Shown: positions 11,706 to 30,144, counted from the first letter of the stretch. The stretch: 64,000 bases of DNA from an uncultured Candidatus Saccharibacteria bacterium (GCA_964510945.1 CAZEED010000004.1:1250-65249), one strand, 5' to 3'. Numbers and translations: made by a program. Notes: a model not told the origin generated them from the letters alone.

Positions 11706-11712
11706 AATTCTC

Positions 11713-12939: not shown

Positions 12940-12964
12940 CAGTGGATAAGTATATAAAAAATAC

Positions 12965-12992: not shown

Positions 12993-13082
12993 TAAGCCTA
13001 GTTAGGCCTGCTATTGGTATATAAGCCGATGTAACCTACGCTTACAACATAATAAAAATAATCATAAGGAGGGTGGGTCCAA

Positions 13083-13538: not shown

Positions 13539-13554
13539 ACATAAGGTTTTCTAC

Positions 13555-13590
13555 AAAAAACAGGTTCAGAATGCTGAACCTGTTTTTTTA
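13555..13590 (+). terminator. Rho-independent terminator after pilA
   Basis: CAGGTTCAG-AATG-CTGAACCTG stem-loop followed by TTTTTTT. Confidence 0.7.
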
Positions 13591-13623
13591 TCGTTGCTTA
13601 AAGATGGTAAAGTAGTACTAAGC

Positions 13624-14046: not shown

Positions 14047-14768
14047 TACATAACTCAAGACAAAGAGGTTTCACACTAATCGAGGTCTTAGTCGTCGCTC
14101 CATTAATGATGGTAACTATCATAATAATGATGACCTATCTATTTAATCTTTTTGGTCAACTAACTCAAGAAGGGGCAAGTTTAAGACTCACTACCGATGC
14201 GCAACTCATAACCCTTGCACTTCAGGATGATGTCTATTTCGCCAATGCTTTCGTTAACTCCACAAACGCTGGTCTCAGCGACACTTATGCTCCAAACGGA
14301 GGCTGGACATACAACTCTACTCCAAAGACTCTTATTATTTCTACGCCCGCACTAACTAAGAATAACCGCGACCCTAATCGGCAGCCAGTATACATTAATA
14401 CCGAAGGCTGTGACCCAGCAAACTTACAAAATAATAGCGCTCTATTTAACAATATTATAGTTTTTGTGAGTGGCACAAAACTATACAAAAGAATTTTAAC
14501 CGCGCCTAACACCCTAGCAACCTGTGGAACTAGCTATGAGAAACAGACTTGTCCAGAAGACCATAGTTCAACTTCGTGTCCGAAAGATATACTATTATCG
14601 GATAAACTTAGTAGTTTTAAAGTTACCTATTTTGATTCAAATAATGTTGAAGTAACTAACCCCGAACAAGCCCAACTCATCAAAGTAGAAATTATTTTAA
14701 AAGATAGAGCCTATGCAGAAGATATTTACGGAGATTCTAGCATAACGCTCAAAAGGTTGAACCAATGA
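14043..14768 (+). CDS. Minor (pseudo)pilin
   Basis: SRQRG|FTLIEVLVVAPLMM. It has 4-nt overlaps with both neighbours. Confidence 0.75.
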   Translation: MIHNSRQRGFTLIEVLVVAPLMMVTIIIMMTYLFNLFGQLTQEGASLRLTTDAQLITLALQDDVYFANAFVNSTNAGLSDTYAPNGGWTYNSTPKTLIISTPALTKNNRDPNRQPVYINTEGCDPANLQNNSALFNNIIVFVSGTKLYKRILTAPNTLATCGTSYEKQTCPEDHSSTSCPKDILLSDKLSSFKVTYFDSNNVEVTNPEQAQLIKVEIILKDRAYAEDIYGDSSITLKRLNQ

Positions 14769-16657
14769 TAATAAAAATCTTTAATAACTTACTAAAAAAT
14801 AGCAACGAAAACGGCTTTGCATTACCAACAATAATTTTATTAACCCTAATTATGTCATTCGTAGCTTACGCTGCCTTAATCCAATCTAACAATAATTTGA
14901 ATCTTGCCTACAAGCAAACATATATTCAAATTGCTCGAACCGCATCAAAATCTGCAATTGATTATGCGCAAGAGCAATTCGACAGTTCAATATGCGGAGC
15001 ATACAGTGGTACGCCAGAGACAAATATAATTGTTAACGACAGGTATCGAGTCACAATCAAAGCTGAAGTTCTTGATACAAGTTCAGACGGTTTTGAAAAA
15101 ACAATAAAAGCTACTGGAAGTGTTTATCTGCCTAAAACTACCTCAAATGCAAAATACATCTTCGATATACGATCTGAAATAGTCCGAACATTTGCACTAT
15201 GTAAAACGCCAGATAACTTTAATCCGATAGTGTGGCTTGATGCGAGCGACACCAGCACACTTAAAAAATCAAACATCAGTACACAAACAGTCAACTACAC
15301 AACAACTTTCGGCAACGCTAATGACAGCACCAGAGATACAATTGAAGAACGTCAAGACAACGGTACTCAAACTACAGGTTCATGGCAGAGTAACGACCTA
15401 GAAATGCATGATTGTGACATAAGTGAATTCTCGAGTGCAATTTGTAATAGTAATTCAACAAAACGCTTATATACGGGTATTGTTTTTAAAAATACTACAA
15501 TCCCAAAAAACGCCAATATAACTTCAGCAACACTTTCGTTCGTTGGGGGCACTCCAGCCGGTTCTAGTGGGTCACTAACTCATAAGCTAATGGGTCTATA
15601 TCAATCATCCAGCAACCCGCATCTAAATCTATTCTCCAGCTCTGGTACAAACCAGGTCAGGACTCCAACAATCACCCTAAATAGCCATACGGCGAGCACA
15701 ATTAACTTTCAAACTAACAACTTCCCCCCCGGCAACACATTAGGGGTAGACGTAAAAAGCGTAGTACAAGAAATGGTAAATAACGCAAACTGGTCAGATG
15801 GCAATTTAGGCTTTGGATTATCTTATGTTAGTGGAAACGGAACACGCAGAGCAAAAAAGAATGGATTAATGTTATCCGTCACATATACATCTAACGCCGG
15901 AAATACTCAGGCGAATAACAATGAGGCAATATCGCAGTGGGACGACAAGTCAATCTATGGCAATAACGCTATCTTTACTCATGGAACCGCCCCTACTCGC
16001 GTCGATAATCAGATAAATAATAAGACGATAGTTAGATTTGCTGGCGGAGATTTACTAAGCACCTTAAGTCAACCACTTAACTCAAAACGAGAAATGACTG
16101 TCATTGGCGTGATAAAACCAAACTTGTCGGCTTCAGATACAGATTCTAGGATAGTATCAGGCATGAACAGTGCTTATAACAACGACACCGACGGTGTGCA
16201 TAGTATTATTCCACTAATGCGTGACGCAAGCACTTCAGGCTTCACTAACGTCTATGCTTCAAATGTCGCTCAGTATAAAAACTCGTTTACCTGTGGCTCT
16301 AATTGCGAAGATAAAACAGATATAGTATCTTCATATTTTACTTCAACTGATTCTACGAAAACTTCTTCGATGCTAAAACTAAATGGCACAATTGGGGCAG
16401 AAAAAAATAATATCGCCCCAACACCTCCCTACACCTACAGCATCAATCAACTATACTTTGGCGGTAACAGAACGGGGGCAATGCCAGGTAGCGGACAAAA
16501 ATACACCTATGGTGATTTTGCTGAAATAATCGTTTATGATCATGCTCTCAGCTGTAGGGATGTAGAATCTCTTGAAGAATACTTAAGGTCGAAATGGAAC
16601 GTATATAACAGCCCAGCTGAATCAATCTGTCCCGCCAACACAATCCCAACTCTGTAA
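14765..16657 (+). CDS. PilX-N-type pilus protein with C-terminal LamG/ConA-like domain (candidate tip adhesin)
   Basis: The N-terminus NGFALPTIILLTLIMSFVAYAAL is PilX_N-like and has no E5. The C-terminus ...LYFGGNR...YTYGDFAEIIVYDHALSCRDVESLEEYLRSKWN is the typical end of Laminin_G_3 domains. Confidence 0.6.
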   Translation: MIIKIFNNLLKNSNENGFALPTIILLTLIMSFVAYAALIQSNNNLNLAYKQTYIQIARTASKSAIDYAQEQFDSSICGAYSGTPETNIIVNDRYRVTIKAEVLDTSSDGFEKTIKATGSVYLPKTTSNAKYIFDIRSEIVRTFALCKTPDNFNPIVWLDASDTSTLKKSNISTQTVNYTTTFGNANDSTRDTIEERQDNGTQTTGSWQSNDLEMHDCDISEFSSAICNSNSTKRLYTGIVFKNTTIPKNANITSATLSFVGGTPAGSSGSLTHKLMGLYQSSSNPHLNLFSSSGTNQVRTPTITLNSHTASTINFQTNNFPPGNTLGVDVKSVVQEMVNNANWSDGNLGFGLSYVSGNGTRRAKKNGLMLSVTYTSNAGNTQANNNEAISQWDDKSIYGNNAIFTHGTAPTRVDNQINNKTIVRFAGGDLLSTLSQPLNSKREMTVIGVIKPNLSASDTDSRIVSGMNSAYNNDTDGVHSIIPLMRDASTSGFTNVYASNVAQYKNSFTCGSNCEDKTDIVSSYFTSTDSTKTSSMLKLNGTIGAEKNNIAPTPPYTYSINQLYFGGNRTGAMPGSGQKYTYGDFAEIIVYDHALSCRDVESLEEYLRSKWNVYNSPAESICPANTIPTL

Positions 16658-16711
16658 AAACACTTTTTTTTGCTATACTAATGTTAAGTGCTAATGCTTA
16701 TATAAACTATC

Positions 16712-17773
16712 ATGGAAAAATCATTTTTTTACAAAGACAAACCATTATTCGGTTTAGATATCGGGTTCAATAGTGTTAAGGTTATGCAGCTTGAAAAGCA
16801 TAACGAGGTCCACCATGTAGTCGGATATGGCGTTGCGACATTTAAGGAAGCAGCAATCAACAAAGGCATGATTATTGATCATGAATCCGTAGCCAAAGCC
16901 GTACAAGAATTATTCGAAAAAAACTTAGTAGGCGAGATTACTACAAAAAGAGTGGCTTTTTCTGTTCCTGCTGCCCGAACTTTTAGCAGAATATTACACC
17001 TCCCAAAACTAGATAAAAAAGATCTATTAGAAGCAGTAAGGCTCGAGGCCGAACAATACATCCCAGTACCTATCGGTGATCTATATTTAGACTTTACTAC
17101 AATAAGACAAACCGATAAGAATATTGATGTTTTGGCGGTTGCAGTCCCAAAAAAAATTATAGACTCGTATCTTCAGCTCTCAAGAATGCTTGGTCTAGAA
17201 GCTGTGGTTATGGAGACAACTACCGGATCAACAGATAGATTATTCCGATATACCGATCAGCACAATGTCCCATCAGTCTTAATTGATTTTGGATCTGTAT
17301 CAGCTGATATTACGGTTTACGATAAGTATATGGCCGTTACCGGGACAGTCCCTGGTGGTGGTGACGACTTTACAAACCTCATTGCCAGTAAATTAAATGT
17401 CACGAAAGACGAAGCGCATCTAATTAAAGTAAAATACGGACTAGGCGCCAGTAAGAAACAATCTGAGATCGTTGAAGCAGTTACCCCAACACTAAACCAA
17501 ACGCTCAAAGAAATAAAACGAATGGTTAGATATTACGAAGAAAGAAGCGAGTCTAACAAAAAGATTGAACAAGTAGTTACCTTCGGTGGCGGAGCTAATG
17601 TTCCCGGCTTAAGCGAATATTTAATAAACGCCCTTAGAATCCCTGTTCGTGCTTGTGATCCCTGGAATCACATAATTTTTAAACACATAAAAGAACCAAA
17701 CGGGGCTGAAAGATCTATGTATATTACTGCGGCAAGTTTAGGGCTAATAAACCCGAAAGGGATATTTGCATGA
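16712..17773 (+). CDS. pilM: Type IV pilus assembly protein PilM (actin-like ATPase fold)
   Basis: LFGLDIGFNSVKVMQL start, ..VVTFGGGANVPGL.. and matching size. Confidence 0.85.
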   Translation: MEKSFFYKDKPLFGLDIGFNSVKVMQLEKHNEVHHVVGYGVATFKEAAINKGMIIDHESVAKAVQELFEKNLVGEITTKRVAFSVPAARTFSRILHLPKLDKKDLLEAVRLEAEQYIPVPIGDLYLDFTTIRQTDKNIDVLAVAVPKKIIDSYLQLSRMLGLEAVVMETTTGSTDRLFRYTDQHNVPSVLIDFGSVSADITVYDKYMAVTGTVPGGGDDFTNLIASKLNVTKDEAHLIKVKYGLGASKKQSEIVEAVTPTLNQTLKEIKRMVRYYEERSESNKKIEQVVTFGGGANVPGLSEYLINALRIPVRACDPWNHIIFKHIKEPNGAERSMYITAASLGLINPKGIFA

Positions 17774-18378
17774 TCAACTTGCTGCCTAATGACAAAAAAA
17801 GCAATATCATCTACGCTCGTAAAAACACCCTGCTTCTAAGATGGAGTCTATTACTTGTAGTTGCGACAATTATTGTGGTTGTGTTGATTGGAGCCGGAAA
17901 TCTATACATCAAGGCCGCTGAGAAAAGCTACAATAAACAAATTGCCGATACCACGCAAACCCTTCAGTCTGAAAATCTAACTGAGACCCAAAAGAAGATA
18001 ACTGATTTATCTAATAACGTAACTTTAATCCAAAAAGTACTAGAAAATACAATATTATTCTCTAAGTTATTAAAGCAAGCTGGCGCTGTAATGCCTCCGG
18101 GCACAGTCTTGTCAAACCTAGAAATTTCAAAAGTTGAAGGTGGGATAGATTTAACAGCTCAAGCAAAAGATTATAAATCAGCCACACAAATTCAAGTTAA
18201 CTTAGCAGACCCTGATAATAAAGTATTCGAAAAAGTTGATATCATATCAATAAATTGCAACAAAGCTGAAGCTTCAGATACCGGCTACGCTTGCGTAGCT
18301 AACCTTCGCGCACTCTTCGGAGACAATAGTCCCTATTTATTCATTACAAAAACTACCAAGTCGGAGTCCAAGCCATGA
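17770..18378 (+). CDS. pilN: PilN-like bitopic protein
   Basis: MINLLP start, a single TM, and coupling to pilM. Confidence 0.65.
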   Translation: MINLLPNDKKSNIIYARKNTLLLRWSLLLVVATIIVVVLIGAGNLYIKAAEKSYNKQIADTTQTLQSENLTETQKKITDLSNNVTLIQKVLENTILFSKLLKQAGAVMPPGTVLSNLEISKVEGGIDLTAQAKDYKSATQIQVNLADPDNKVFEKVDIISINCNKAEASDTGYACVANLRALFGDNSPYLFITKTTKSESKP

Positions 18379-19028
18379 CTAGCAAAAAAGTCTATTGGGG
18401 AATGTGCTCATTATTTTGTCTGCTGATAATTGGATTTTTTGGTTCAATCTTATTCGGAAATTCAATATTAAAACAAAGTGCATCTTCACTGTTAGACCTC
18501 AAGCTAAAAAGCCGGATACTCAACGAACAACAAACTGCGCTAACAAAGGCCAAAAATGACATAGAAAAGTACCAAGATTTTGATAAAATTGCAAAAACAG
18601 TAGTACCGCAGGATAAAGATCAAGCTAAAGCAGTCAGAGAAATTATCAAGATGGCTGATCAAAGCAACATAAATATCGGGAGCATCGCCTTCCCGGCATC
18701 TGACCTAGGTGATAATAGCGGGACCAAATCAACTGTTAATCAAAATCCAGACGCACCTAAATCGGCAGCCGAACAAACCCCGGCATCTTCAAAATCTGCT
18801 GTTTCACAGGCAGTCCCAGTACCAGGAGTCTCGGGAGTATACTCATTAGAAATGAACATAATGCAAGATTCACCACCGGTTACTTTCACGCAACTTCTAA
18901 CTTTCTTGAAACTTCTCGAAAATAACCGCAGAACTGCGCAAGTAACACAGATTAGAATCGACCCAATTCCGAATAGCCCAAACCTTACATTCACACTAAC
19001 CATTAATATTTTTATAAAACCATCATGA
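18375..19028 (+). CDS. PilO-like bitopic protein
   Basis: Single N-terminal TM plus coiled coil. Assignment rests on its position after pilN. Confidence 0.5.
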   Translation: MTSKKVYWGMCSLFCLLIIGFFGSILFGNSILKQSASSLLDLKLKSRILNEQQTALTKAKNDIEKYQDFDKIAKTVVPQDKDQAKAVREIIKMADQSNINIGSIAFPASDLGDNSGTKSTVNQNPDAPKSAAEQTPASSKSAVSQAVPVPGVSGVYSLEMNIMQDSPPVTFTQLLTFLKLLENNRRTAQVTQIRIDPIPNSPNLTFTLTINIFIKPS

Positions 19029-19324
19029 AATTAGATATAAATAAAATACCCGTATTACTCTCGCGACTCAAAGATCTTATCAAGCCATATATCGGTTTTG
19101 TGATTGTTATCGTTATCCTAGGGATGTACGGTGTTGTAATCTGGCAAGTCAGGGCTTACGTCACTCAAGAACCCTCTGAGATAAAAGTTGCACAGGAGCT
19201 AACTACAATAAATATCCCGAAAGTTGACGAGGAAGCTATAAACCGAATCACTCAATTAGAAGACAGAAATATCCAGGTAAAAGCCTTATTTGAAGATGCT
19301 CGCCAAAACCCATTCAACGAATAA
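19025..19324 (+). CDS. Small single-TM protein, last gene of the pilus operon
   Basis: Overlaps the upstream gene by 4 nt and has one TM (IGFVIVIVILGMYGVVIW). Confidence 0.4.
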   Translation: MKLDINKIPVLLSRLKDLIKPYIGFVIVIVILGMYGVVIWQVRAYVTQEPSEIKVAQELTTINIPKVDEEAINRITQLEDRNIQVKALFEDARQNPFNE

Positions 19325-19327
19325 CAA

Positions 19328-19924
19328 TTAATTACCGTAGTGTTTTAAATTAACCTCGTGAGAGTTGATTATAACTTTTGAAGCTTTATATGGATTAGGC
19401 ACGTAATTAAACACATAGTTATTTTGTTCGCCGGCAGTTTCTATAGTTAGTGTTCCATAGTTATAGGCTCTGGCCAAAAATGACTTTTGTTCAACTGTAA
19501 CATCTTGCGCGTCACCAATTCCTAGTTGAGATACTTTTCTTGAGAATATTGTTATATATATCACTTGGGCAATTTTTTCATTGGTAACAAATATTACATT
19601 ATGAGTGTATAAAAAACCATTAATGTATGTAACAACTCCAATACCTACTGAAAGCAAAAACCCGATAAAAACTACTACCGATTCATAACCACCTAGACCA
19701 AAACTTTCTATTAAACCGCTCGATACTAGACCAGTAACGACTGCAATCAGTGAGAAAGCAATAAATATTCCGGTTATATAAATAAAGAATAATCCAATTG
19801 GATGTTTTCGTATTTCTAACAATAACTCCTCATCCGGATCAAATTCAATTAAGTCAAAGCACTTTCGCCCAAGGCTAGACAGACGGTGCATACCTTGTTT
19901 TTTCGCTGAATCACCTTTGTCCAT
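19328..19924 (-). CDS. Membrane protein with bacterial PH (YdbS/YdbT-like) domain
   Basis: LLEIRKHPIGLF, followed by two TM segments and a C-terminal beta-rich domain. Confidence 0.6.
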   Translation of the reverse strand: MDKGDSAKKQGMHRLSSLGRKCFDLIEFDPDEELLLEIRKHPIGLFFIYITGIFIAFSLIAVVTGLVSSGLIESFGLGGYESVVVFIGFLLSVGIGVVTYINGFLYTHNVIFVTNEKIAQVIYITIFSRKVSQLGIGDAQDVTVEQKSFLARAYNYGTLTIETAGEQNNYVFNYVPNPYKASKVIINSHEVNLKHYGN

Positions 19925-19936
19925 AATTAACGCTAA

Positions 19937-20968
19937 TTATACCAGTTTTTGTTGATCATCTGATTTATTGATCGTTTTGCCTAGATGTTTATGTGCTTTT
20001 GGTGTGGTTTTTCGTCCTCTTGGAGTCCTTTCCAGTAATCCTATCTGTAGTAGATATGGCTCATGAAAATCCTCAATAGTTGTTCTTTCCTCTGATGTTA
20101 AGGCAGCGAGCGTCTCTAGCCCCACGGGGCCGCCATTGTAGTTATCGATAACTGCCAGCAATAACCTTCGGTCAGATGGATCAAGACCTAACTCGTCAAT
20201 TTCTAGCAACTTCAAAGCTTTTAAGCTGATTGGATTATCGATTATTCCATCACCGTTCACGTCAGCATAATCACGAACACGTTTCAGTAGCCTGTTAGCA
20301 ATTCTTGGTGTTAAACGAGCTCGCTTCGCCAGTTCAACGGCGGCTGGTTCGTCTATTTTTACCCCGAGTATCCCCGCAGAACGCTTTATAATCTTGGCAA
20401 TTTCCTCTGGTGTGTAGAATTCTAAGCGATGTATCATGCCAAATCTATCACGAAGCGGTGCCGCTAATGCGCCAGTCCTGGTTGTTGCGCCAATAATTGT
20501 AAACTTCGGCAAATCCAACCTTAGACTCTTCGCGCTTGGTCCTTTACCCAACATGATGTCTAATTTGAAATCTTCCATCGCACTATATAAAACTTCTTCT
20601 ACAGATCTATGTAGCCTATGGATTTCGTCAATAAACAATATATCGCCGTCTTGCAGGTTTGTTAGCAAGCTAGCCAGATCCCCGGCCCGCTCAATCGCAG
20701 GGCCACTCGTGATTCTAATCTGGGCACCCATTTCATTTGCAATAACGCTGGCTAGTGTTGTCTTGCCCAGCCCGGGTGGCCCATACAACAATACGTGGTC
20801 AACCGGCTCGCCGCGTTTTTTAGCTGCATCAATTGATAATTGCAGGTTTTTCTTTATTCGCTCCTGACCAATGTAGTTGGCGAAATCTTTCGGCCGCAAC
20901 GTTACCTCGAGTTCTTGCTCGTCTTTGTTATCTGGTTCGTCTGGTTGTGTTATCCGCTCAATCGCCAT
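19937..20968 (-). CDS. ruvB: Holliday junction helicase RuvB
   Basis: [20 protein letters not shown], full-length match. Confidence 0.95.
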
Positions 20969-20974
20969 ATTATT

Positions 20975-21658
20975 TCACCTGTAATTTATATGAAGTTCGT
21001 TGACCCAAAGTTTTGCGGGACCACAGATTGCACTCACGATTTGATTCGCCAAGTCTGATGCCTCGGTAAATTTTTCAATCGGGAAATCATCGCCAGCTTT
21101 CTTAAACATCTGAGTATTAGTACCTGCTTGATACACTGCCATAACATGCACACTAGTATCCTTCAAATCTTCCCTTAGCACATCGGTGAATCCCCGGACA
21201 CCGTATTTTGTTGCCGAGTATACCGACTGGCCCGCCTGTGCAGCAACACCTGACTTAGAAACGATATTAACCACTAGTCCTTCAGGTTGTTTTTTGAGTA
21301 GTGGCATTGTGTATTTGGTTAAGTACAGAACCCCTTTCAGATTAGTGTCAATCAACTTGTCTATTTCGTCGTCCGCAACTTGCTCTAGTTCCGACAATTT
21401 CTGCCAGATTCCTGCATTATTAACAACCACATCAAGCTGGCCATATTTTTCTTCGATCTGCTCTACTAGGTTTTTAATGTCTGAGACTTTGCTAACGTCA
21501 CAATTTACTTTCTCAAAACTAAAGTCAAAGTTTCCGGATTCAACATTTCTGCTAGCACCAATGACTTTTGCGCCACTTTCAACTAATTTTTTTACAATCT
21601 CAAGCCCGATGCCTTCACTAGCGCCCGTAACCAGAATTACTTTATCTTTGATGTTCAT
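20975..21658 (-). CDS. Short-chain dehydrogenase/reductase
   Basis: TGASEGIG, NNAG, and S...YSATK catalytic motif. Confidence 0.85.
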   Translation of the reverse strand: MNIKDKVILVTGASEGIGLEIVKKLVESGAKVIGASRNVESGNFDFSFEKVNCDVSKVSDIKNLVEQIEEKYGQLDVVVNNAGIWQKLSELEQVADDEIDKLIDTNLKGVLYLTKYTMPLLKKQPEGLVVNIVSKSGVAAQAGQSVYSATKYGVRGFTDVLREDLKDTSVHVMAVYQAGTNTQMFKKAGDDFPIEKFTEASDLANQIVSAICGPAKLWVNELHINYR

Positions 21659-22240
21659 TCACTTGTTTCCTTTCAGGGCTTGTTTGATTCTTTCTTCAGT
21701 CGAGAGGGTTTTGTCAATGTTTTGCAAGGCTAGCTGGGCGTCTATTTCTTGGTAGCCTAATGCTACGAGCGCCTGTACAGCCTCATCACTTTGGTTAACG
21801 CTGCCACGATTTATAATGTCGTCTGCGCCAGTACCAGCGGCAATTCCGACTTTATCACGTAGCTCTACAACTATTTGCTCGGCGGCTCGCTTGCCTACGC
21901 CTTTGGCGGTCTGAAGAGTTTTGACTTCGCCAGCGGCAATCGCCGATCGCACATAATCGCCTGACCCAATATCGAGTACTGCCAACGCAACCTTTGGGCC
22001 TACGTTCTTAACACTCAGCAGTTGTTCAAAAAGTTGTTTTGTCTCGATCCTGCTAAATCCAAATAGGTCGTGTGATGCTTCCCGGATATGCTCGTAAACA
22101 TATAGTTTTGCTTTTTCGTTCAAACGCAATTTTGCATAATCATCTACGGTTACTAGCAGGCCGTAACCAATTCCATTCACGTCAACAACGATAGAATCAA
22201 CAAATTTTTCCGAAACAATTCCCGCGAGCGTCGCTATCAT
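21659..22240 (-). CDS. ruvA: Holliday junction DNA-binding protein RuvA
   Basis: MIATLAG...GIGY; HhH motifs (L.SV.GVGPK.A, L..KGVGKR.AE). Confidence 0.9.
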   Translation of the reverse strand: MIATLAGIVSEKFVDSIVVDVNGIGYGLLVTVDDYAKLRLNEKAKLYVYEHIREASHDLFGFSRIETKQLFEQLLSVKNVGPKVALAVLDIGSGDYVRSAIAAGEVKTLQTAKGVGKRAAEQIVVELRDKVGIAAGTGADDIINRGSVNQSDEAVQALVALGYQEIDAQLALQNIDKTLSTEERIKQALKGNK

Positions 22241-22247
22241 ATCTATA

Positions 22248-22718
22248 TTATCGCATATTCATGCTGCAACAGATAGCGGCAGCTAGGGCGTCGGCTGCAT
22301 CATCAGGTTTTGGTATACTTTTTAATTTCAAAATAGTTCGGACCATTTCTTGAATCTGGGCTTTTTCGGCCTTGCCATAACCTGTCAGCGCCTGTTTTAT
22401 TTGTTGTGGTGTATATTCGTGCAATTCCATTTTGTGTTGTTTACCCAGTAACAAAACCACTCCACGAGCTTGACTAACACTCATCGCAGTCGTTACGTTC
22501 TGTGCAAAAAACAACTTCTCGACGGCCATAACTGTTGGTTTGCATTCATTAATTATCTCGCTCAACTCGTTAAAAATAGTTTCTAAGCGGTCTGAATCTG
22601 CTTGGTGCACAGGTGTTTTTATCACGCCAGCGTCAACTAAAGTCATAGAGTTTTTCTCGACATCAATAACCCCAAAGCCTAAAATTCCTGTGCCTGGATC
22701 AATGCCTAGTATTCTCAT
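22248..22718 (-). CDS. ruvC: Holliday junction resolvase RuvC
   Basis: MRILGIDPGT...; ...AADALAAAICC. Confidence 0.9.
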   Translation of the reverse strand: MRILGIDPGTGILGFGVIDVEKNSMTLVDAGVIKTPVHQADSDRLETIFNELSEIINECKPTVMAVEKLFFAQNVTTAMSVSQARGVVLLLGKQHKMELHEYTPQQIKQALTGYGKAEKAQIQEMVRTILKLKSIPKPDDAADALAAAICCSMNMR

Positions 22719-22775
22719 CTATCTAGATAATAACAAACAAAAGCCCCAAGGACCCGATAATCGCCATTATGTAAT

Positions 22776-24401
22776 CTAGAATTTCTTTCTTAGTCGATTA
22801 AAATATTTCTTTAGCTCTGACCTATACTCGTATACTCCATAGCCAAATAATCCCGCTCCAACAACTGCCAAAGCACCGTTACTCACTGGATTGGCAGTTG
22901 CCGTAGCCACATTCTCTAAGCCTCCGGCAGTGTTTACGCCAGCGACCTTTCTACATCGATTAGTCTCCTTATTTCTGACCGATCCTTTTTCACAAGCCTT
23001 TAATAAACTTCCGGAATCTATTTTCTTGCACCGATTTGTTTCGGGGTTTCGAAATTGATCCGAAGCACATGGTTTCAACGAGGAGGCCAATACTGCAATT
23101 TTCTTACATCTGTTTGTCTCCGGATTCCGGTACTGATCACTATTACAGGCTTTTAGGACACTCAATGTGGTACTTTTTAAGCGACAGCGGTTAGTTTCGG
23201 GACTACGGTACTGATTTGAATTACAAGGCACCAAACTAGACGAGGTAACGATATTTTTACAGCGATTTGTTTCAGGGTTTCGAAACTTACCTGGTGGACA
23301 TGGCGTTATGCCCCCTTTTCCTCCGGTGTCTATAAACAATTGAGTGGGGCCAAGATTGGGTTCGTTCGGGGTAACCTGATCAGTTACAACCCACTCCCCA
23401 TCAACGAACGCCCAACTCTCACCTTCTCCAACTTTATCGTAGATTTCACTTGTATGGGTTATTGTGCCTCCTGGGTCTAACACCCTCGCGACACTCAAAG
23501 TATTGCTTAGCGTTAAATTAGTTTGCGCGGAATCCAGTGCGAGATATGATTTTGAGGCAATTTGAATAGATGGCAAAATGTAATTGTAATTAAAATCCAA
23601 GCCTGTTTGAATTTTATATCCTTCTAGATTAACAGCCTCGTTATTAGGATTATAAAGCTCAACAAATTCATCCTCGTCATCGGTTTGTGGGCTTGAAGGA
23701 TTAGGGAGTAACTCACTAATCGTAACTGGTAAGTAAGTCTCTATAGTAGGTTCAGGTTCGGGATTAGGTGTCGGATCAGGGTCGGGGGTAACAACTGGAG
23801 GGTCAACTTCGGGTGACGGAAGTTGCCCAGTTAGACTAAAGTTTGTCGAGTTATTATTCGTATCCATAGGATGGCCGTCATTATCAAATATGCGTTTTAT
23901 ACTACTCCCATTATCAGGAATAATAGCTTGAGCCGTCTCATAGCATTTAGCAGGTGACCCACTACTGCCCCAACCAACTAAATCAAAGATGCTAACAGAG
24001 GATTGGTCTACTGCAGTCTGCTTCAACCGTAAAGAGCCTCCAACATTATCATTTAGGCTAGTTTCAAAGATAATTCTCCCTCTAGGCTGGACAACCCCAG
24101 ATAAATTATCTTTTCTGACATTAGAACTAGCATCAATTGCTTTCCAGTCTGGAGAGCTACAATCCGAAGATGAAATTGTCGACGAGACTTTGGCATATTC
24201 TAGTGACCAACCAGCCAAATCTATCGGATTAGCACTGTCATTAAACAGTTCGACGAATTGCGTCGGTTGTCCGGCAACGGCACCACCTAACTTTATCTCG
24301 CTAATTAACACTCTCTCATTTAATGCTCTTGCTGGTAAAAAAGAGACACAAAATAATGCCAAAATAGTTAGCATTAGTGCTCGGCTGAAAAATATTTTCA
24401 T
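22776..24401 (-). CDS. Surface protein: signal peptide, two lamin-tail (LTD) domains, five Cys-pair repeats, C-terminal TM anchor
   Basis: LISEIKLGG...QFVELFN...L.GWSL and ISELLPNP...EFVELYNP...LEGY are LTD signatures. They are joined by a Pro-rich linker. The C-terminal hydrophobic segment is followed by RLRKKF. Confidence 0.7.
   Translation of the reverse strand: MKIFFSRALMLTILALFCVSFLPARALNERVLISEIKLGGAVAGQPTQFVELFNDSANPIDLAGWSLEYAKVSSTISSSDCSSPDWKAIDASSNVRKDNLSGVVQPRGRIIFETSLNDNVGGSLRLKQTAVDQSSVSIFDLVGWGSSGSPAKCYETAQAIIPDNGSSIKRIFDNDGHPMDTNNNSTNFSLTGQLPSPEVDPPVVTPDPDPTPNPEPEPTIETYLPVTISELLPNPSSPQTDDEDEFVELYNPNNEAVNLEGYKIQTGLDFNYNYILPSIQIASKSYLALDSAQTNLTLSNTLSVARVLDPGGTITHTSEIYDKVGEGESWAFVDGEWVVTDQVTPNEPNLGPTQLFIDTGGKGGITPCPPGKFRNPETNRCKNIVTSSSLVPCNSNQYRSPETNRCRLKSTTLSVLKACNSDQYRNPETNRCKKIAVLASSLKPCASDQFRNPETNRCKKIDSGSLLKACEKGSVRNKETNRCRKVAGVNTAGGLENVATATANPVSNGALAVVGAGLFGYGVYEYRSELKKYFNRLRKKF
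22950..23300 (-). repeat. Coding tandem repeat, 5 x C-x3/4-Q-[FY]-R-N-P-E-T-N-R-C-[KR]
   Basis: CPPGKFRNPETNRCK / CNSNQYRSPETNRCR / CNSDQYRNPETNRCK / CASDQFRNPETNRCK / CEKGSVRNKETNRCR, spaced about 24 aa apart. Confidence 0.75.
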
Positions 24402-24462
24402 TTTTTATGTTAATTAGGTTCTCTAAAAAATATTGTCAGCCTTTTAGTAAGACATGTCAAGC

Positions 24463-25176
24463 TTATGCTAAATTAAAATTGGTGTGTGTTTCGGTAACCT
24501 CATCAATGTCTTCAAGGGCTTCCATCAATCTAATTACCTTACCTTGAGTAGATTCATCGCTAATCTCTACTGAGTTATTAGCTATATACGATAATCCTGC
24601 TTCTAAAATTTCGATATTCTGGTTTTGTAAATTCTCGCGTACTTTGGCGAGATCCTTAAGGGCCGTATAGACGACCGTATCGCCATCCTCTTCTTCGGCA
24701 TCCTCTGCCCCCGCGTCGAGTACTTGCAACAGTAGGTCCTCGCTTGAACCCTTAACCCTAATAACACCTTTATGATCAAACTGAAAAGCCACGGCACCTT
24801 TCTCGGCAATGTTCCCACCGTGCTTAGAAAAAGCTAACCGAACTTCCGGATAAGTTCGGTTTACGTTATCGGTGGCACACTCTACCAATATTGCTACCCC
24901 GCCTGGACCATAGCCTTCGTACAGCACTTCTTGAATTTGGGCACCACCAAGTTTGCCACTACCTCGATCGATCGAACGTTGGATATTAGCGTTTGGCATA
25001 TTTGCCGCTTTAGCCTTATCGATTGCCAACCTTAGGGTAAAGTTCATGTCCGGATCAGCTCCACCACGGGCTGCAATCGCAATCATATTACCAAGCTTGG
25101 TAAAGACAGCACCCCGTGCGGCATCTTTGGCGCCTTTTTGTCTTTTGATTGTTGACCATTTGCTATGTCCAGACAT
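24463..25176 (-). CDS. yebC: YebC/PmpR family transcriptional regulator
   Basis: MSGHSKWSTIKRQKG start; full-length family pattern. Confidence 0.9.
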   Translation of the reverse strand: MSGHSKWSTIKRQKGAKDAARGAVFTKLGNMIAIAARGGADPDMNFTLRLAIDKAKAANMPNANIQRSIDRGSGKLGGAQIQEVLYEGYGPGGVAILVECATDNVNRTYPEVRLAFSKHGGNIAEKGAVAFQFDHKGVIRVKGSSEDLLLQVLDAGAEDAEEEDGDTVVYTALKDLAKVRENLQNQNIEILEAGLSYIANNSVEISDESTQGKVIRLMEALEDIDEVTETHTNFNLA

Positions 25177-25209
25177 TTCAATACTCCAAAATTTCTCTTA
25201 AAAACACTT

Positions 25210-26643
25210 CTATTTATCTGAGATTATTATATCATGTTCAGTTTTTGATCTAATCTGTAGAATCATCACTAATCCGATTATTAATGCGTAAAATATTAAC
25301 ATTTGGGCAAGATTAATACTTATTTTTACATATGCGCCAGGGACTTTACTTAAAACCGCAGAAATTGACAACATATATCGTAAAATTATTTCCGCCGGCA
25401 AGGCTACGATACCACCAAAAATAAATCCCGTCATACCACTAATACCAGCAAAAAGGCTTAACAGCATTGCAACGGGTACTAATGGCACAACTAACGCATT
25501 AGCAACAATACTAACAACCGATAATCGGCCAAATATGTACAAGATTAAAGGCAAAGTTAGTAGTTGCGCAGAAAATGTTTCCGACAACACGGTCTGAACT
25601 AGCTTGTTTTGATTTTCTTTCTTTACAAATCTTTTATTAAGTAGCGGGGCTAAAACTAATATCCCAAAAAACGCAAGGAATGATAGATGCCAACCAATAT
25701 TAGTCCATAGGTACAGAGGATTTACGTAAGCCGTTAATCCGGCGACGAGACATATTAGTAGTACCGGTTTAAATCGACGCCCAAAATACCAAGCTAACAA
25801 ACTTAGCGTACTAACAATACCGGCCCGAACAATCGATGGGCTATTTCCTGTTAATAATAAGAACAGCACAATAAGGCCTAGCGAGAATATCAATGATTGA
25901 TATCTTGAGCGTTTTGAAAAAGATCTTTCTGATGCGTTAATTATAACCGTCAAGTTATAGCCAGACACCGCAATAATATGAACCAGACCAACAGCTATTA
26001 ATAAATCGGTTAGTTCTTGACTAAGAGTATTCCTCTGCCCGATTAGAAGGCCCAGTCCAAACGAAGCTAACGGCTCTGGTAAGGCATTTTGCATACCAGC
26101 CGCAAATTCACGACGCACCTTATCTACTACAGAATTGCTCTTCTCTGTAACCGTCAGGTTTGCAAAACTAATACCACCTTGTTGGGCACCTCGCTTTTTA
26201 TACAACCTACCAACAATGGTTAACTTATCACCTTTATAAACAATTGGCGTGCCACGTCCAGCAATATCAAGCTCACCGACCAGCTCGGTTCGCTCTGGGC
26301 TATTCACAAACATGCTACCAACCGGAAAGCTCAACAGTCCTTTATCATCGTAGACTGCATCTTGCAAAGCTGTCGCCTCTACGACAACTTGCCTACCTGA
26401 TAGATCATCATATATCGATAATCTCTGAAAGTATTCTGCACCACGAAGCCAACCTAGTAAAAAACAACAGATCGCTAAACCAACCAATATAGAAATTTTG
26501 TTTTTAGTAATTATAAAAATTAGGCCAGAAATCAATCCAGCCAACAAGATCCAAGAATAATGCAAACCAACACCAGTTCTAGAAAAACCTAGTCCTAGTA
26601 GTAACAAAATGAATAAAATGGTGGCGAAAGTTGTTCTTTTCAT
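25210..26643 (-). CDS. comEC: DNA internalisation channel ComEC/Rec2 (DUF4131 + competence domain, no beta-lactamase domain)
   Basis: Polytopic membrane protein with a ...GLVHIIAVSGYNLT... competence motif. The start was moved to MKRTTF (26643). Confidence 0.85.
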   Translation of the reverse strand: MKRTTFATILFILLLLGLGFSRTGVGLHYSWILLAGLISGLIFIITKNKISILVGLAICCFLLGWLRGAEYFQRLSIYDDLSGRQVVVEATALQDAVYDDKGLLSFPVGSMFVNSPERTELVGELDIAGRGTPIVYKGDKLTIVGRLYKKRGAQQGGISFANLTVTEKSNSVVDKVRREFAAGMQNALPEPLASFGLGLLIGQRNTLSQELTDLLIAVGLVHIIAVSGYNLTVIINASERSFSKRSRYQSLIFSLGLIVLFLLLTGNSPSIVRAGIVSTLSLLAWYFGRRFKPVLLICLVAGLTAYVNPLYLWTNIGWHLSFLAFFGILVLAPLLNKRFVKKENQNKLVQTVLSETFSAQLLTLPLILYIFGRLSVVSIVANALVVPLVPVAMLLSLFAGISGMTGFIFGGIVALPAEIILRYMLSISAVLSKVPGAYVKISINLAQMLIFYALIIGLVMILQIRSKTEHDIIISDK

Positions 26644-26914
26644 GCCAATAATGATTATCAGCAGAATACCACGAATAGCGTTATAGCATTGACTTTTCTC
26701 TCTAAAACAGAGATAATTCACTCTGTTTTACACCATTTTGGTGCAAGCCAAATCCGGGTCCGTAGCCCCGCCTGTCTGACCGACAGGACGGACAGGTCAG
26801 CTGCATAGGCAAGCATAGCTTGCCGTAAATAATTTATAAGCACCTGTGCTCTAACACAAAACTGTTCTTTTACAAATAAGATATAGTCACAACCGTAGAC
26901 TAGCCTTTACATCC

Positions 26915-26991
26915 GGGTCCGTAGCTCAGCTGGTTAGAGCACCTGCCTTTTAAGCAGGGTGTCGTGGGTTCAAGTCCCACCGGACCCTCCA
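26915..26991 (+). tRNA. tRNA-Lys (anticodon TTT), CCA encoded
   Basis: Hand-folded cloverleaf: acceptor GGGTCCG/CGGACCC, D arm GCTC/GAGC, anticodon arm CCTGC-CTTTTAA-GCAGG, T arm GTGGG-TTCAAGT-CCCAC. Confidence 0.9.
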
Positions 26992-27046
26992 TCCTCCGTC
27001 GCAAATCTCTTTAGAGATTAGCTATGGAGGATTTTGTGTTTTTTGG
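26991..27046 (+). terminator. Two-tier hairpin plus T-run after tRNA-Lys
   Basis: ATCCTCC...GGAGGAT encloses AATCTC-TTTA-GAGATT and is followed by TTTGTGTTTTTT. Confidence 0.6.
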
Positions 27047-27265
27047 GCTTAAATCTACGACAAGCCTTGTGGTATCGTGGGGGAGAAATGCCAGTTGGCA
27101 TTTCGTACAGTCGGAAACCCGGAGTATATTAATGCCCAAGCTGAGACGGGGTCGCGGAATTTTTCATAGAAAAATATCTGTGACCAAGTCCGTAAACCTA
27201 GACCACCAATTCAGCTTTGCCTAAAACAGGGGAAATTAACCTCTGTTCTTGATATACTAAATAGC

Positions 27266-28174
27266 ATGAAAATTGCAGTGCTTGACTATCGTATCCCTCT
27301 GGAAATCCAAAAAGAAATACAATCATTTGCGACCAATAAAATATTGTACCCTACGGATCGCTGCCCAGCAGACCAGCTTGTTAAGAAAACCGGAGATGCT
27401 GAAATTGCTCTTGTAACTCCCTGGGATAAAATCGATAAAGCATATCTTGACGAATGCCCAAATCTTAAATACATCGGCCTTTGTGGTACATCGACAGCAA
27501 ATGTTGACCTAAAAGAGCTTGATCGACGAGGAATTGCTTTTACAAATATGCATTCAGGTAAAGAGGACAAGAATGCTAAAGCCGCCGGCGGCAAAGAGGC
27601 GGTTGCCGAGTTCTTCTTTATGCAACTCGTTCGGCTAGCTAGGGGTATTGGTGAATATCAGTGGAAGCACGGAAAAATTCATCAACTAAAGGGTCGATCA
27701 CTTGGCATTATCGGATTGGGTGATGTTGGAAAAGGAATAGCTCATATGGCTCTCGCATACAAGATGAACGTAGCGTATTTCAGCCCACACCGTAAACCAG
27801 AATGGGAAGAGAAAGGTGTAGTGTATAAGAAAAAGGATGATCTTCTAAAAAAATCAGAAGTCATAGTATTGTGTAGCACAACAAATGTCCAGGTGTTAGG
27901 AAAAGAAGATTTTAAGTTTATAAAAGACGGTTCCATACTAGTTCAGGCTTGTGGCGGTAATCCGTTTGACAAGCCGTCATTCTATGACTGGATCTCTGGT
28001 GATGGTAACTTTGCCATATTTGATATGTCCACTAATGAACAAAACTACCAACTCTATAAAGATATACCAAGAGTTATTTTTTCAAGAGAGGTTGCTGGTG
28101 ATACATACGAATCAAACCTTGCAAGAGGGAGACGTGCCTTGCAACACCTTAAGGACTACCTTCAAAGTAGTTAA
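27266..28174 (+). CDS. D-isomer-specific 2-hydroxyacid dehydrogenase
   Basis: NAD-binding motif GIIGLGDVGKGIA; family-typical length and layout. Confidence 0.85.
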   Translation: MKIAVLDYRIPLEIQKEIQSFATNKILYPTDRCPADQLVKKTGDAEIALVTPWDKIDKAYLDECPNLKYIGLCGTSTANVDLKELDRRGIAFTNMHSGKEDKNAKAAGGKEAVAEFFFMQLVRLARGIGEYQWKHGKIHQLKGRSLGIIGLGDVGKGIAHMALAYKMNVAYFSPHRKPEWEEKGVVYKKKDDLLKKSEVIVLCSTTNVQVLGKEDFKFIKDGSILVQACGGNPFDKPSFYDWISGDGNFAIFDMSTNEQNYQLYKDIPRVIFSREVAGDTYESNLARGRRALQHLKDYLQSS

Positions 28175-28269
28175 GAATGGGTTGCAAAAGCAACACATAA
28201 GTCCCACCGAACGAATCTCAAAACAGATTATTTAAACACTAAAAATGTACTATTTGTTATGATAAGTTC

Positions 28270-28810
28270 ATGATTGCACCGCAATTAGAAACCCCTCGCT
28301 CAAATGTGCGGCTTATACAACCTAAGGTTGATAGAGATGCCCAACTAAGTCTCTCGTGGTTAGAAGGTGAAATCGGAAAAAACACCTTATCGCTAATGGG
28401 AGCAACTAAACAATAATACCTCACAAACTACTTTAGAAAATGAACAAGAGCGTATTAAAGATTTTATTGAGAAATATGATCAGCTTAACTGGATGATACA
28501 GCTTGGCGATAAGGTCGTTGGCTCAATATGGGTAGATCTAAAACCCACGATAGAATTGCCAGCCCCAGCGGTTCACATCATGATTGGTGATCCGTCTGCT
28601 AGAGGACAAGGAGTTGGCTCGGCATCAACAAACGCCGTTATCAGTTATTTAGAAGGACAGGGAGAGAAAGCGGTTTATACAAGATGCCTCACCAACAATT
28701 CTACAGCGATAAAATTACTTGAAGAACAAGGTTTTCAAACACTTGGAGACAAATATATTGACGAGAATGGTCTTGAGTGGCAAAACTCAAAGTGTGATTT
28801 AAATAGGTAG
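28270..28810 (+). pseudogene. GNAT N-acetyltransferase split by a +1/-1 frame change near 28397..28416
   Basis: Frame 1 runs from ATG 28270 (MIAPQLETPRSNVRLIQP...LSWLEGEIGKNTLSLMGATKQ*) and stops at 28414..28416. The frame of ORF 28493..28810 is open from 28397 (WEQLNNNTSQTTLENEQERIKDFIEKYDQLNWMIQLGDKVVGSIWVDL...RGQGVGS). Together they make one RimJ/RimL-like GNAT. Confidence 0.6.
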
Positions 28811-28905
28811 ACTTTTGTATCGTCCAATAAACAAATCATTCTACTTATTTACTAAAATATTAATACCCAAGTACACCGCAAACTCTTTAATGTTAGAATA
28901 GTAAT

Positions 28906-29196
28906 ATGATCAGAGACATCTTGGGTTTCGGAAAAAAATATGGTGGGCCAGTACGCGATCTAACGCCAGATCTTTGCGATGTGCCAGACAGCATTTGGCC
29001 TGAACCAACTCACGCTAATATTCAAGGCACGCTCGCCGTTATGGTTGCTCAAGTGCCTGAAAGCAGATCTATACCAGAGGATGTTACCCTACGCGAACTG
29101 GCCGGGCTAGCAATTCCTCCAACCTTCGAGAATCTTCCCGAAGAAACAAAAGCCCTAGTCGAAGATATTTCGTCTGGTTTTTTTGAAGAACGCTAG
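28906..29196 (+). CDS. Hypothetical acidic protein
   Basis: ORF only; no motif. Confidence 0.35.
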   Translation: MIRDILGFGKKYGGPVRDLTPDLCDVPDSIWPEPTHANIQGTLAVMVAQVPESRSIPEDVTLRELAGLAIPPTFENLPEETKALVEDISSGFFEER

Positions 29197-29202: not shown

Positions 29203-29688
29203 TTATTTTTTGCCGCGTTTTTTAGATTTTTCGCCACGGTTTAAAACCCACAACGCAACTAGCTGAATCACAACCACCGCACCGATAATCGTACTACTAG
29301 TATTCAGAAGCTCTTGCCCCAGAGGATTTGAGGCAATTGTAGCTTGAACATTTGCTGGCAATAACGGTAAAGCAAAAGATGCATAAACAACACCTGTAAT
29401 AAGTAGCGGAATTAGGTTTAAGATATTTTTACTTATCGAGATCGTACCCTTAAGTATTAGCGCCGTTAGCACGATAGGCAATGTCAAAATAATCAATTCG
29501 GTGTATTGAGTAGTGTATGGATTGCGAAAGGCCTTTTCAGCCTCTACGATCGCATCCTGCCCAAAATATCTAGCAAGTAGCTCACCGGCCATTACGCTAA
29601 AGAAAATGTGTGGTGCGCTGACACGCATAAAGAATCCTAATAGTACCGGTACTGCAAGTAATCCGCCAACTATGATGTATGGAAGCAT
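29203..29688 (-). CDS. Polytopic membrane protein
   Basis: Four to five hydrophobic segments with a basic C-terminal tail. It is the last gene of the RimK-containing minus-strand string. Confidence 0.5.
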   Translation of the reverse strand: MLPYIIVGGLLAVPVLLGFFMRVSAPHIFFSVMAGELLARYFGQDAIVEAEKAFRNPYTTQYTELIILTLPIVLTALILKGTISISKNILNLIPLLITGVVYASFALPLLPANVQATIASNPLGQELLNTSSTIIGAVVVIQLVALWVLNRGEKSKKRGKK

Positions 29689-29712: not shown

Positions 29713-30144
29713 CTAGTTAAGATTGACTCTTTGACCTACTTCAATCTTGGCCGATTCAGCGTCTCCGGCGTTAAGTTCAATAACGTATTTTGCTGGACCG
29801 TGACAATACTGATTAGGATAGGTTTCTGGACTGACATTCTGTTCTATAGCAATAATATTTTTCTCCGGATTTAACCAAATTATATCTAGTGCAAATTTCA
29901 TATCTTTCATCCAAATACACTGGTCTCTTTCATCTGGAAAAACAAAAATCATCCCAGAATTATCTTCTAGACCATCTCGTCCAGATAAGCCAAGTTGTAA
30001 TTTTTCAGCGGTGCTTACCCACTCAAGCTCATAATATTCTAAACCGATTTTAATCCCAGATTTTGGGCTATTAAATAACAAGGCGCCAATCACTACCAGT
30101 CCCAAACCTAAGAGTACTAATAGTGACCTTTTACGCGCCGACAC
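29713..30144 (-). CDS. DUF192 (COG1430) protein with signal anchor
   Basis: GLSGR..L...SGM.FVF......IWMKDM.F.LDIIW. pattern. Confidence 0.7.
   Translation of the reverse strand: MSARKRSLLVLLGLGLVVIGALLFNSPKSGIKIGLEYYELEWVSTAEKLQLGLSGRDGLEDNSGMIFVFPDERDQCIWMKDMKFALDIIWLNPEKNIIAIEQNVSPETYPNQYCHGPAKYVIELNAGDAESAKIEVGQRVNLN

Follow-up and report, generated by a model that had tools for sequence, protein, structure and literature searches.

A lamin-tail-domain protein with a basic cysteine-hairpin stalk, linked to comEC in Saccharibacteria, as a possible ComEA-like partner of ComEC

A stretch of 64,000 nucleotides (nt) from an uncultured Candidatus Saccharibacteria bacterium (GCA_964510945.1 CAZEED010000004.1:1250-65249), referred to here as the window, was analyzed around a minus-strand gene for a surface protein of 541 amino acids (aa) with two lamin-tail domains (LTDs). 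Pfam and NCBIfam searches confirmed that this gene stands in a string with yebC and comEC, as an initial annotation of the sequence had noted. That annotation had placed comEC downstream on the same strand; the strand was right, but comEC lies transcriptionally upstream (5') of the LTD gene. The features of the LTD gene and of the two genes preceding it are given below, with positions counted from the first letter of the window.

25210..26721, minus strand: comEC, probable start at 26643 (Pfam Competence, 1.4e-42, and DUF4131; TIGR00360)
24463..25176, minus strand: gene of the yebC/TACO1 family, between comEC and the LTD gene (Pfam, 2.6e-52)
22776..24401, minus strand: gene of the LTD/Cys-hairpin/membrane-anchored protein, open reading frame (ORF) of 541 aa with two Pfam LTD stretches
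24324..24401, minus strand: predicted signal peptide, residues 1-26, cleavage after ARA (sequence reading; N-terminal helix 2-17 in the AlphaFold2 (AF2) model)
23817..24323, minus strand: lamin-tail domain 1 (LTD1), residues ~27-195, acidic beta-sandwich (Pfam LTD; AF2 predicted local distance difference test score (pLDDT) >90)
23736..23816, minus strand: acidic Pro-rich linker PDPDPTPNPEPEP between LTD1 and LTD2 (sequence; pLDDT 62-68)
23346..23735, minus strand: lamin-tail domain 2 (LTD2), residues ~223-352, acidic (best Pfam LTD stretch, residues 225-299; pLDDT >94)
22944..23303, minus strand: five Cys-pair beta-hairpin repeats, basic stalk (exact motif positions; AF2 hairpins)
23259-23300, minus strand: repeat 1, CPPGKFRNPETNRC (exact motif)
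23184-23225, minus strand: repeat 2, CNSNQYRSPETNRC (exact motif)
23106-23147, minus strand: repeat 3, CNSDQYRNPETNRC (exact motif)
23028-23069, minus strand: repeat 4, CASDQFRNPETNRC (exact motif)
22953-22994, minus strand: repeat 5, CEKGSVRNKETNRC (exact motif)
22827..22886, minus strand: predicted C-terminal transmembrane helix ending G-Y-G-x-Y-E-[YW]-R (AF2 helix at residues 508-525, pLDDT ~90)
22779..22826, minus strand: basic, presumably cytoplasmic tail RSELKKYFNRLRKKF (AF2 helix at residues 527-540)

The protein is a member of the LTD family. PF00932 was found in two stretches with an E-value of 6.2e-21 and a score of 75.2 bits vs a gathering cutoff of 34.3. The N-terminus, MKIFFSRALMLTILALFCVSFLPARA followed by LNE (MKIFFSR-ALMLTILALFCVSFL-PARA before LNE, with an AxA site), reads as a predicted Sec signal peptide, and this region is net positive in 86% of homologues. 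The AF2 model of the 541-aa protein was built on 105 homologues. It had a mean pLDDT of 85.6 and consisted of two beta-sandwiches (>90), five beta-hairpins (60-87), the transmembrane helix (508-525) and a terminal helix (527-540). In Foldseek, the Ig domains of lamin A/C and B1 were matched with a probability of 1.0 and TM-scores (target) of 0.46-0.60. A search of the full model against the PDB returned generic tandem Ig-like matches alone (transglutaminase barrels, lamin Ig), which are uninformative on function. The architecture of the initial annotation, namely a signal peptide, two LTDs joined by a linker, and a C-terminal transmembrane anchor with a basic tail, was thus recovered from the ORF, Pfam and the model, the signal peptide by sequence reading. 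Taken together, the sequence and the model lead us to propose a type I membrane protein with the ectodomain outside, a single C-terminal transmembrane helix and a short basic tail inside. The linker DNA has a 12-nt periodicity at 23752-23785, as detected by Tandem Repeats Finder (TRF).

The cytoplasmic end of the predicted transmembrane helix carries a juxtamembrane motif, G-Y-G-x-Y-E-[YW]-R (residues ~518-527; 22827-22850, minus strand). E525 is invariant and both Y521 and R527 are kept in at least 90% of 105 sequences, while the tail that follows is net positive in 98% of homologues. No known sorting signal fits this motif. A C-terminal sorting signal of the LPXTG, GlyGly-CTERM or PEP-CTERM type, or a relative of these, was considered and rejected: NCBIfam gave no match, and the conserved motif is not placed before the transmembrane helix. 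Because the conservation of Y-E-[YW]-R is unusual for a passive anchor, it suggests a specific membrane partner, for which the motif may be the contact site. No helix-hairpin-helix, ComEA or other nucleic-acid-binding family was found in the 541-aa protein with Pfam and NCBIfam at E up to 0.01. A tblastn phage search gave no match to the protein and therefore no hint of a phage receptor-binding origin.

Five tandem Cys-pair repeats of ~24 aa had been described for the membrane-proximal region. The five exact units were found, but their period is 25-26 aa, with one Cys pair per unit and 11-aa linkers between units. The motif occurs in a single gene of the window and, in 80 related loci, is confined to the orthologous genes. 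The consensus over 451 units is L-K-P-C-x-x-G-Q-x-R-N-P-E-T-N-R-C-[RK]-K, in which N11 is kept in 98% of units and R6, T10, R12 and the two Cys in 100%. The number of hairpins per protein ranges from 3 to 6 with a mode of 4, and 22 of 78 proteins have an odd number of them (3 or 5). This speaks against Cys being shared between units, and binding of Zn by Cys pairs so shared was considered unlikely for this reason. An intra-repeat disulfide is predicted, in agreement with the invariant Cys pair and the modelled hairpin in each unit. TRF detected no tandem repeat at the DNA level in the hairpin region, which indicates that the units are old and not a recent expansion.

The repeat had not been recognized as a member of a named family, and our searches agree with this. 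At E up to 10, Pfam gave sub-threshold noise alone, for example CBM_14 at 13 bits vs a cutoff of 22. The nearest Pfam model was TNFR_nem (PF25314), with 15.0 bits in the window repeats vs a cutoff of 27; its scores in homologues were ~11-27 bits, P0060 alone reached 27.4, and the coverage was half of the profile (positions 18-34). Searches of PDB sequences with phmmer and with a profile gave nothing meaningful. A repeat-only AF2 model (pLDDT 71) again showed five hairpins and had no Foldseek match at E <= 0.001; its weak resemblances to LRP2, DR5 (E 0.19), TNFR2 (E 1.3-2.4), RSPO2 and furin-like repeats were not significant. In the probable orthologue from Southlakia epibionticum, the DPAM parse assigned the ECOD class 'TNF receptor-like' with a score of 0.941 (Wang et al. 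Table S2). The repeat is best described as a predicted, minimal one-disulfide version of the TNFR/EGF-type hairpin, which it resembles faintly. It is no known wall- or glycan-binding module. Such a match had been set beforehand as a refuting test of the initial proposal, and Pfam, PDB sequences and Foldseek gave none; in Pfam, the LTD protein likewise had no match to LysM, SH3b, PG_binding, SLH or choline-binding repeats.

An exhaustive search with the repeat region against 1.84 billion representatives yielded 1,194 matches. Among the 150 of these that were listed, most proteins were 480-700 aa long with the repeats near the C-terminus, the bacterial ones shared a single architecture, and no informative fusion of the repeat to a nuclease, ComEC or ComEA was found. 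The outliers checked were fragments, a three-LTD variant and the Cys-rich, eukaryote-like P0179. The latter, a metagenomic protein of 833 aa with a eukaryote-like secreted character, has 11 repeats with CPPGQERDGETNEC hairpins and matches Pfam CPW_WPC / TNFR_nem. Its hairpins are strikingly like the Saccharibacteria unit, the rest of the protein is unrelated, and the presence of CPPGQERDGETNEC units shows that this hairpin type is generic.

The family is large and Saccharibacteria-wide. A homologue search of 5.8 billion proteins gave more than 2,890 matches. The best 120 were looked at; nearly all of them were 480-700 aa long with LTD as the sole Pfam domain, and the few that carried an organism name were from Saccharibacteria. 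Scanning genomes gave 513 stretches with relatives, of which 80 loci were kept for comparison; most of these are titled Saccharibacteria or Saccharimonadales, and the remainder carry unclassified bacterial or other labels. The architecture of signal peptide, LTD, linker, LTD, 3-6 hairpins and transmembrane helix is constant, with one three-LTD variant. The charge, computed over 105 homologues, is partitioned along the chain. LTD1 has a median charge of -10 and is positive in none of the homologues, the linker (median -6) is acidic without exception, and LTD2 (-16 in the window protein, median -11) is acidic in all. The hairpin region is positive in 99% of the homologues, with a median of +9 and a value of +16 in the window protein, in line with the basic content ascribed to the repeat at the outset. 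Since the LTDs are uniformly acidic, DNA or another polyanion, if bound at all, would more likely be held by the basic membrane-proximal stalk.

For the analysis of synteny, ORFs were called in the 80 loci and clustered, and the neighbors were mapped; 73 loci had enough flank to be informative, and 78 had a complete LTD ORF. Linkage to comEC, which had also been set beforehand as a refuting test, was kept: comEC was found upstream of the LTD gene, on the same strand and within 3 kb, in 62 of the 73 informative Saccharibacteria loci. It is the most retained neighbor (64 of 78 loci with a complete LTD ORF, vs 48 for RuvC and 47 for YebC), and yebC lies between comEC and the LTD gene in ~45 of the 80 loci. 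In 38 loci a single gene, almost always yebC as in the window, stands between the two. In 15 loci they are directly adjacent, with gaps from -57 to +128 nt, and yebC and ruvCAB are absent from the string. Two or three genes (FBPase and aldolase, or a CN-hydrolase-like gene and yebC) intervene in 9 loci, and 11 loci have no comEC within 3 kb. The adjacent and the one-gene-between arrangements interleave on the LTD tree, among proteins that are ~30-40% identical. As yebC and the ruv genes are lost from the string in this way, the linkage to comEC is independent of the other genes, and the tight gaps (-57 to +41 nt) are consistent with co-transcription. Upstream of directly adjacent comEC, the neighbors checked were a LexA-like protein, an HNH nuclease, a two-component pair and a Y-family polymerase, with no pilus genes. 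In a clade formed by L008, L012, L033 and L042, the LTD gene (at ~8001, or as mapped per locus) lies away from comEC; a RecX / PRC-barrel pair flanks it on one side and TsaB / RNase Y-like genes on the other.

In about 19 loci, an N-terminally anchored His-Me-finger nuclease of the GmrSD_C/DUF1524 type (Pfam 1.7e-17) is encoded immediately upstream of comEC. We take this nuclease to resemble pneumococcal EndA in fold class and topology. It is ~240 aa long in L040 (2013-2741, plus strand), and equivalents are present in L030, L038, L039, L047, L055, L063, L070 and L073. No homologue was found in the window, and that of S. epibionticum (SEML1_0519) lies elsewhere in the genome and is non-essential. 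In some of the loci with directly adjacent comEC, a small protein with a LexA DNA-binding domain is encoded ahead of the nuclease-comEC-LTD string, with a Y-family polymerase gene close by (L047:3186-3602, plus strand; L038:12748-14016, minus strand). These neighbors hint at SOS-type regulation of this module.

In the window, the gene string continues beyond the LTD gene into ruvC, ruvA and ruvB, so that the minus-strand order from 5' to 3' is comEC, yebC, LTD gene, ruvC, ruvA, a short-chain dehydrogenase/reductase (SDR) gene, ruvB and bPH_2. The remaining features of the locus are as follows.

24432..24460, minus strand: promoter-like element TTGACA-17-GACAAT in the 61-nt gap between yebC and the LTD gene (10/12 match)
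22248-22718, minus strand: ruvC (Pfam; synteny)
21659-22240, minus strand: ruvA (Pfam; synteny)
20975-21658, minus strand: SDR gene, between ruvA and ruvB (Pfam)
19937-20968, minus strand: ruvB (Pfam; synteny)
19328-19924, minus strand: bPH_2 membrane protein gene, after ruvB (bacterial PH domain)
9257-19324, plus strand: type IV pilus assembly locus (Pfam N_methyl pilins, T2SSE, T2SSF, PilM_2)
8095-9123, minus strand: recA, beside the type IV pilus cluster (Pfam RecA)

The region of 8-27 kb of the window thereby brings recA and ruvABC together with comEC and the type IV pilus genes, i.e. genes of DNA uptake, recombination and resolution. A full type IV pilus locus had been claimed nearby. PilB, PilC, PilM and several pilins were confirmed 3.4 kb from the LTD gene, but on the opposite strand, and neither PilT nor a prepilin peptidase was found among the window ORFs scanned. 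The same large-scale order is present in S. epibionticum (SEML1_0758-0777). The bPH_2 gene after ruvB is kept in ~39 loci and in S. epibionticum (SEML1_0769, non-essential); the SDR gene between ruvA and ruvB is clear in L003 only among the 80 loci, with a weaker match in L048. The comEC ORF as called mechanically begins at a GTG 26 codons before the likely ATG (MKRTTFATILF...), which adds the segment 26644-26721. The end coordinate of the initial annotation, 26643, falls on this ATG. The window ComEC has the OB-fold/DUF4131 and Competence domains and, by Pfam and NCBIfam, no metallo-beta-lactamase (MBL) domain. A regular-expression scan of the 64-kb window for ComEA-like helix-hairpin-helix motifs, which is a weak test, found RuvA alone. 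On the other side of comEC, a plus-strand block of ~2 kb (27266-29196; a 2-hydroxyacid dehydrogenase and two small ORFs) divides it from genes for a protein with four transmembrane segments (29203-29688) and a DUF192 protein (29713-30144), whose homologues lie next to or near comEC in other loci.

Three sites in 19200-27300 reach a 10/12 match, and the element in the gap between yebC and the LTD gene is the best of the minus strand. The total count of such sites is not above chance, so that the element is suggestive only as a candidate promoter of the LTD gene. Past the LTD stop codon there is a weak hairpin with a T-run (22741-22755, minus strand). The two elements hint at a promoter and a weak terminator belonging to the LTD gene itself, a point of relevance to whether the transposon sequencing (Tn-seq) data discussed below reflect polarity.

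SEML1_0775 of Southlakia epibionticum ML1, annotated as 'lamin tail domain-containing protein', is probably the orthologue of the window protein, in view of how it is annotated and parsed into domains and of its place, flanked by yebC (0776) and ruvC (0774), with comEC as 0777. It differs from the window protein in its length of 630 aa with an N-terminal extension, and a penicillin-binding protein (PBP) gene stands between ruvC and ruvA there. Its family is flagged as core and Patescibacteria-enriched in Table S1, with no mention in the text of the paper (Wang et al. 2023). S. epibionticum is naturally transformable and needs comEC for this; its com components are ComEC, DprA and ComFC, and the genome-wide Pfam, KEGG and structure tables have no entry for ComEA, K02237 or PF12836 (Wang et al. 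2023). In the candidate phyla radiation (CPR), ComEC was found in 86% of genomes and almost never with the MBL domain, whereas ComEA was annotated in only 31%, for which an alternative DNA-binding mechanism was suggested (Meheust et al. 2019).

Based on these data, we tentatively read the LTD protein as an extracytoplasmic partner of ComEC with a ComEA-like role in DNA handling, whose basic hairpin stalk would hold DNA at the channel. We propose that it acts jointly with ComEC on the outside of the membrane. Retraction of type IV pili would bring double-stranded DNA to the cell surface, where the membrane-proximal stalk, built of 3-6 basic and putatively disulfide-stapled hairpins with invariant Arg/Asn/Thr/Arg and Lys/Arg, would bind it and keep it beside the ComEC channel. 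The stalk would thus fill the role that helix-hairpin-helix ComEA has in other competent bacteria, and the protein would be expected to contact ComEC and to contribute to transformation. The two acidic LTDs would point outward, serving as a spacer or offering a docking site to a partner, e.g. the pilus, a nuclease or a host surface. In some lineages, strand degradation could be supplied by the anchored His-Me nuclease encoded just before comEC, an activity that this ComEC lacks, being without an MBL domain. The retention of comEC as a neighbor, the nuclease gene, the basic stalk, the lack of a listed ComEA, the anchor motif and the gene context support this reading in part. The surface DNA receptor of the initial annotation finds backing in the comEC linkage, in the lack of a listed ComEA and in the nuclease neighbor, with the basic stalk, and not the acidic LTDs as that annotation implied, as the likelier site of any DNA binding. 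A receptor for the host surface, its alternative version, may also apply.

The LTD protein is not a ComEA, an ExeM-type nuclease, a TNFR proper or a member of a known sorting-signal class. As is the case for ComEA, it is predicted to be extracytoplasmic and tethered by a single helix, it is encoded near comEC (in Bacillus, comEA-comEB-comEC form an operon), and its proposed task is to keep incoming double-stranded DNA close to the channel. In contrast to ComEA, it has neither a helix-hairpin-helix (HHH_3) nor sequence similarity; its anchor is C-terminal and not N-terminal as in Bacillus, it is ~2-3 times larger and has two acidic Ig-like domains, and its DNA binding is a proposal only. ComH of Helicobacter pylori, which we take to be a periplasmic DNA receptor restricted to its lineage, in contact with ComEC and standing in for ComEA, would be a precedent for a non-homologous substitute, although it is presumably unrelated to the LTD protein in sequence and fold, soluble and periplasmic, and from a diderm. 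To our knowledge, the comH gene does not lie next to comEC. In the case of the LTD-containing extracellular nucleases ExeM (Shewanella) and Xds (Vibrio), a weak NCBIfam match to the N-terminus of ExeM was observed (E 0.0016; 16.6 bits vs a cutoff of 1300, N-terminal 60 residues only). The LTD protein has no OB-fold, EEP nuclease domain or GlyGly-CTERM, and ExeM and Xds do not have two LTDs with a Cys-hairpin array. With TNFR, EGF and furin-like repeats, the protein appears to share C-P-x-G-x-[FY]...C beta-hairpins with a predicted Cys-pair staple. It differs from them in being bacterial, in having one Cys pair per 25-aa unit and in its R-N-P-x-T-N-R signature, which is below every Pfam cutoff. 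TNFR repeats have about three disulfides per ~40 aa.

Several observations weigh against a role as partner of ComEC. TNFR/EGF-like hairpins are classically protein-binding modules, and the invariant Arg/Asn/Thr could be purely structural. With Pfam and NCBIfam, no domain of demonstrated DNA binding was found in the LTD protein, and both LTDs are strongly acidic in every homologue. comEC is absent within 3 kb in 11 of the 73 informative loci, and gene order kept within one phylum partly reflects shared ancestry. In Tn-seq, SEML1_0775 was classed NE/ES/ES at T0/T1/T2, i.e. class II essential, its insertions falling from 30 to 1 and its normalized reads from 451 (T0) to 13 (T2), whereas comEC, yebC, comFC, dprA and the DUF1524 nuclease were non-essential throughout (Wang et al. 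2023). Depletion of the LTD gene where comEC is dispensable is unlike what is expected for a pure helper of ComEC. The same data weaken the idea that uptake through this route feeds the cell with scavenged nucleotides, as was first supposed, since S. epibionticum can grow without comEC, comFC or dprA. The genes downstream of SEML1_0775 (ruvC, PBP and ruvA) were also depleted with very similar kinetics, and the design of the hph cassettes included both a promoter and a terminator (Wang et al. 2023). Assuming that the transposon carried the same hph cassette, its terminator and the parallel depletion of the downstream genes point to a polar effect, and polarity is a plausible cause of the depletion of SEML1_0775. 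The tolerated insertions in yebC imply a promoter between yebC and the LTD gene. The depletion is therefore either a polar artefact or the sign of a role beyond ComEC, and it is mainly this question that keeps our reading tentative.

If the depletion is taken at face value, the LTD protein could be needed for epibiotic growth at the envelope or host interface, perhaps as an adhesin or a spacer that cooperates with type IV pili where the cell touches its Actinobacterial host. It would then have no part in DNA uptake, and the linkage to comEC would result from co-regulation or operon history. This is somewhat doubtful, yet it agrees with the class II essentiality of SEML1_0775 beside a dispensable comEC, with the Ig-like folds of the distal LTDs, which are typical of surface proteins, and with the core and Patescibacteria-enriched status of the family (Table S1, Wang et al.). 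Many essential genes of S. epibionticum are envelope-associated, and its type IV pili are essential independently of competence (Wang et al. 2023). What it leaves unexplained is why comEC, and not the pilus genes, stays the neighbor through rearrangements. Moreover, polarity is plausible, given the terminator in the cassette and the close parallel between this depletion and that of PBP and ruvA further downstream, and the ectodomain architecture is kept over very different habitats with presumably different hosts, which is unusual for a host-specific adhesin.

An unlikely variant is a wall-spanning scaffold, in which the basic stalk would bind the cell's own anionic envelope polymer (teichoic-acid-like, peptidoglycan or lipid head groups) and the LTDs would present or tether secreted enzymes, e.g. 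nucleases. The periodic invariant Arg/Asn/Thr/Arg units beside the membrane would suit such a role. Bacterial LTDs were described as usual in membrane-associated hydrolases and proposed to target membrane-associated structures (Mans et al. 2004, as cited in PMC6085458), and deletion of the ExeM LTD lowers the nuclease activity without abolishing it (PMC6085458). The absence of any match to the wall-binding families named above speaks against a scaffold, and the comEC linkage is unexplained by it unless the tethered enzyme is the competence nuclease, in which case it merges with the proposed partnership with ComEC. Still less probable is a generic surface protein that came to lie near comEC, between yebC and ruvC, by chance of descent and without consequence for its function. 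A single phylum supplied all loci, so that their order can be inherited, and the 11 informative loci without comEC nearby would be accommodated. Against this, the adjacency persists in at least four arrangements, among LTD proteins that are ~30% identical, while yebC, ruvC and other neighbors come and go.

A literature search for LTD with Saccharibacteria or with ComEC found nothing about the LTD protein. The papers searched appear to describe neither the linkage to comEC nor the split into acidic and basic parts, the module of nuclease, comEC and LTD gene, or the link to the scarcity of ComEA in CPR. In its wider form, the partnership with ComEC would make this family a non-homologous DNA receptor of Saccharibacteria, and perhaps of other ComEA-poor Patescibacteria, in which a TNFR-like hairpin array feeds an MBL-less ComEC and a His-Me nuclease is the third part. 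We consider this wider claim rather speculative; if true, a cysteine-rich hairpin fold would be put to DNA binding in a new way, and the protein would stand for a competence receptor of a new class. Much of bacterial diversity belongs to Patescibacteria/CPR, many of which are unable to make nucleotides. Natural competence is the sole current route to Patescibacteria genetics (Wang et al. 2023). The DNA-uptake machinery of CPR is seemingly incomplete, with a ComEC that lacks the nuclease domain and with ComEA annotated in about a third of genomes. An anchored protein with a basic stalk, encoded in linkage with comEC, offers a concrete candidate for the missing part, and one that can be tested, as a cultivable orthologue (SEML1_0775) and genetic tools exist. 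If the protein is instead an essential one at the host interface, it would be a core, phylum-wide envelope factor of the epibiotic lifestyle that has so far been left undiscussed.

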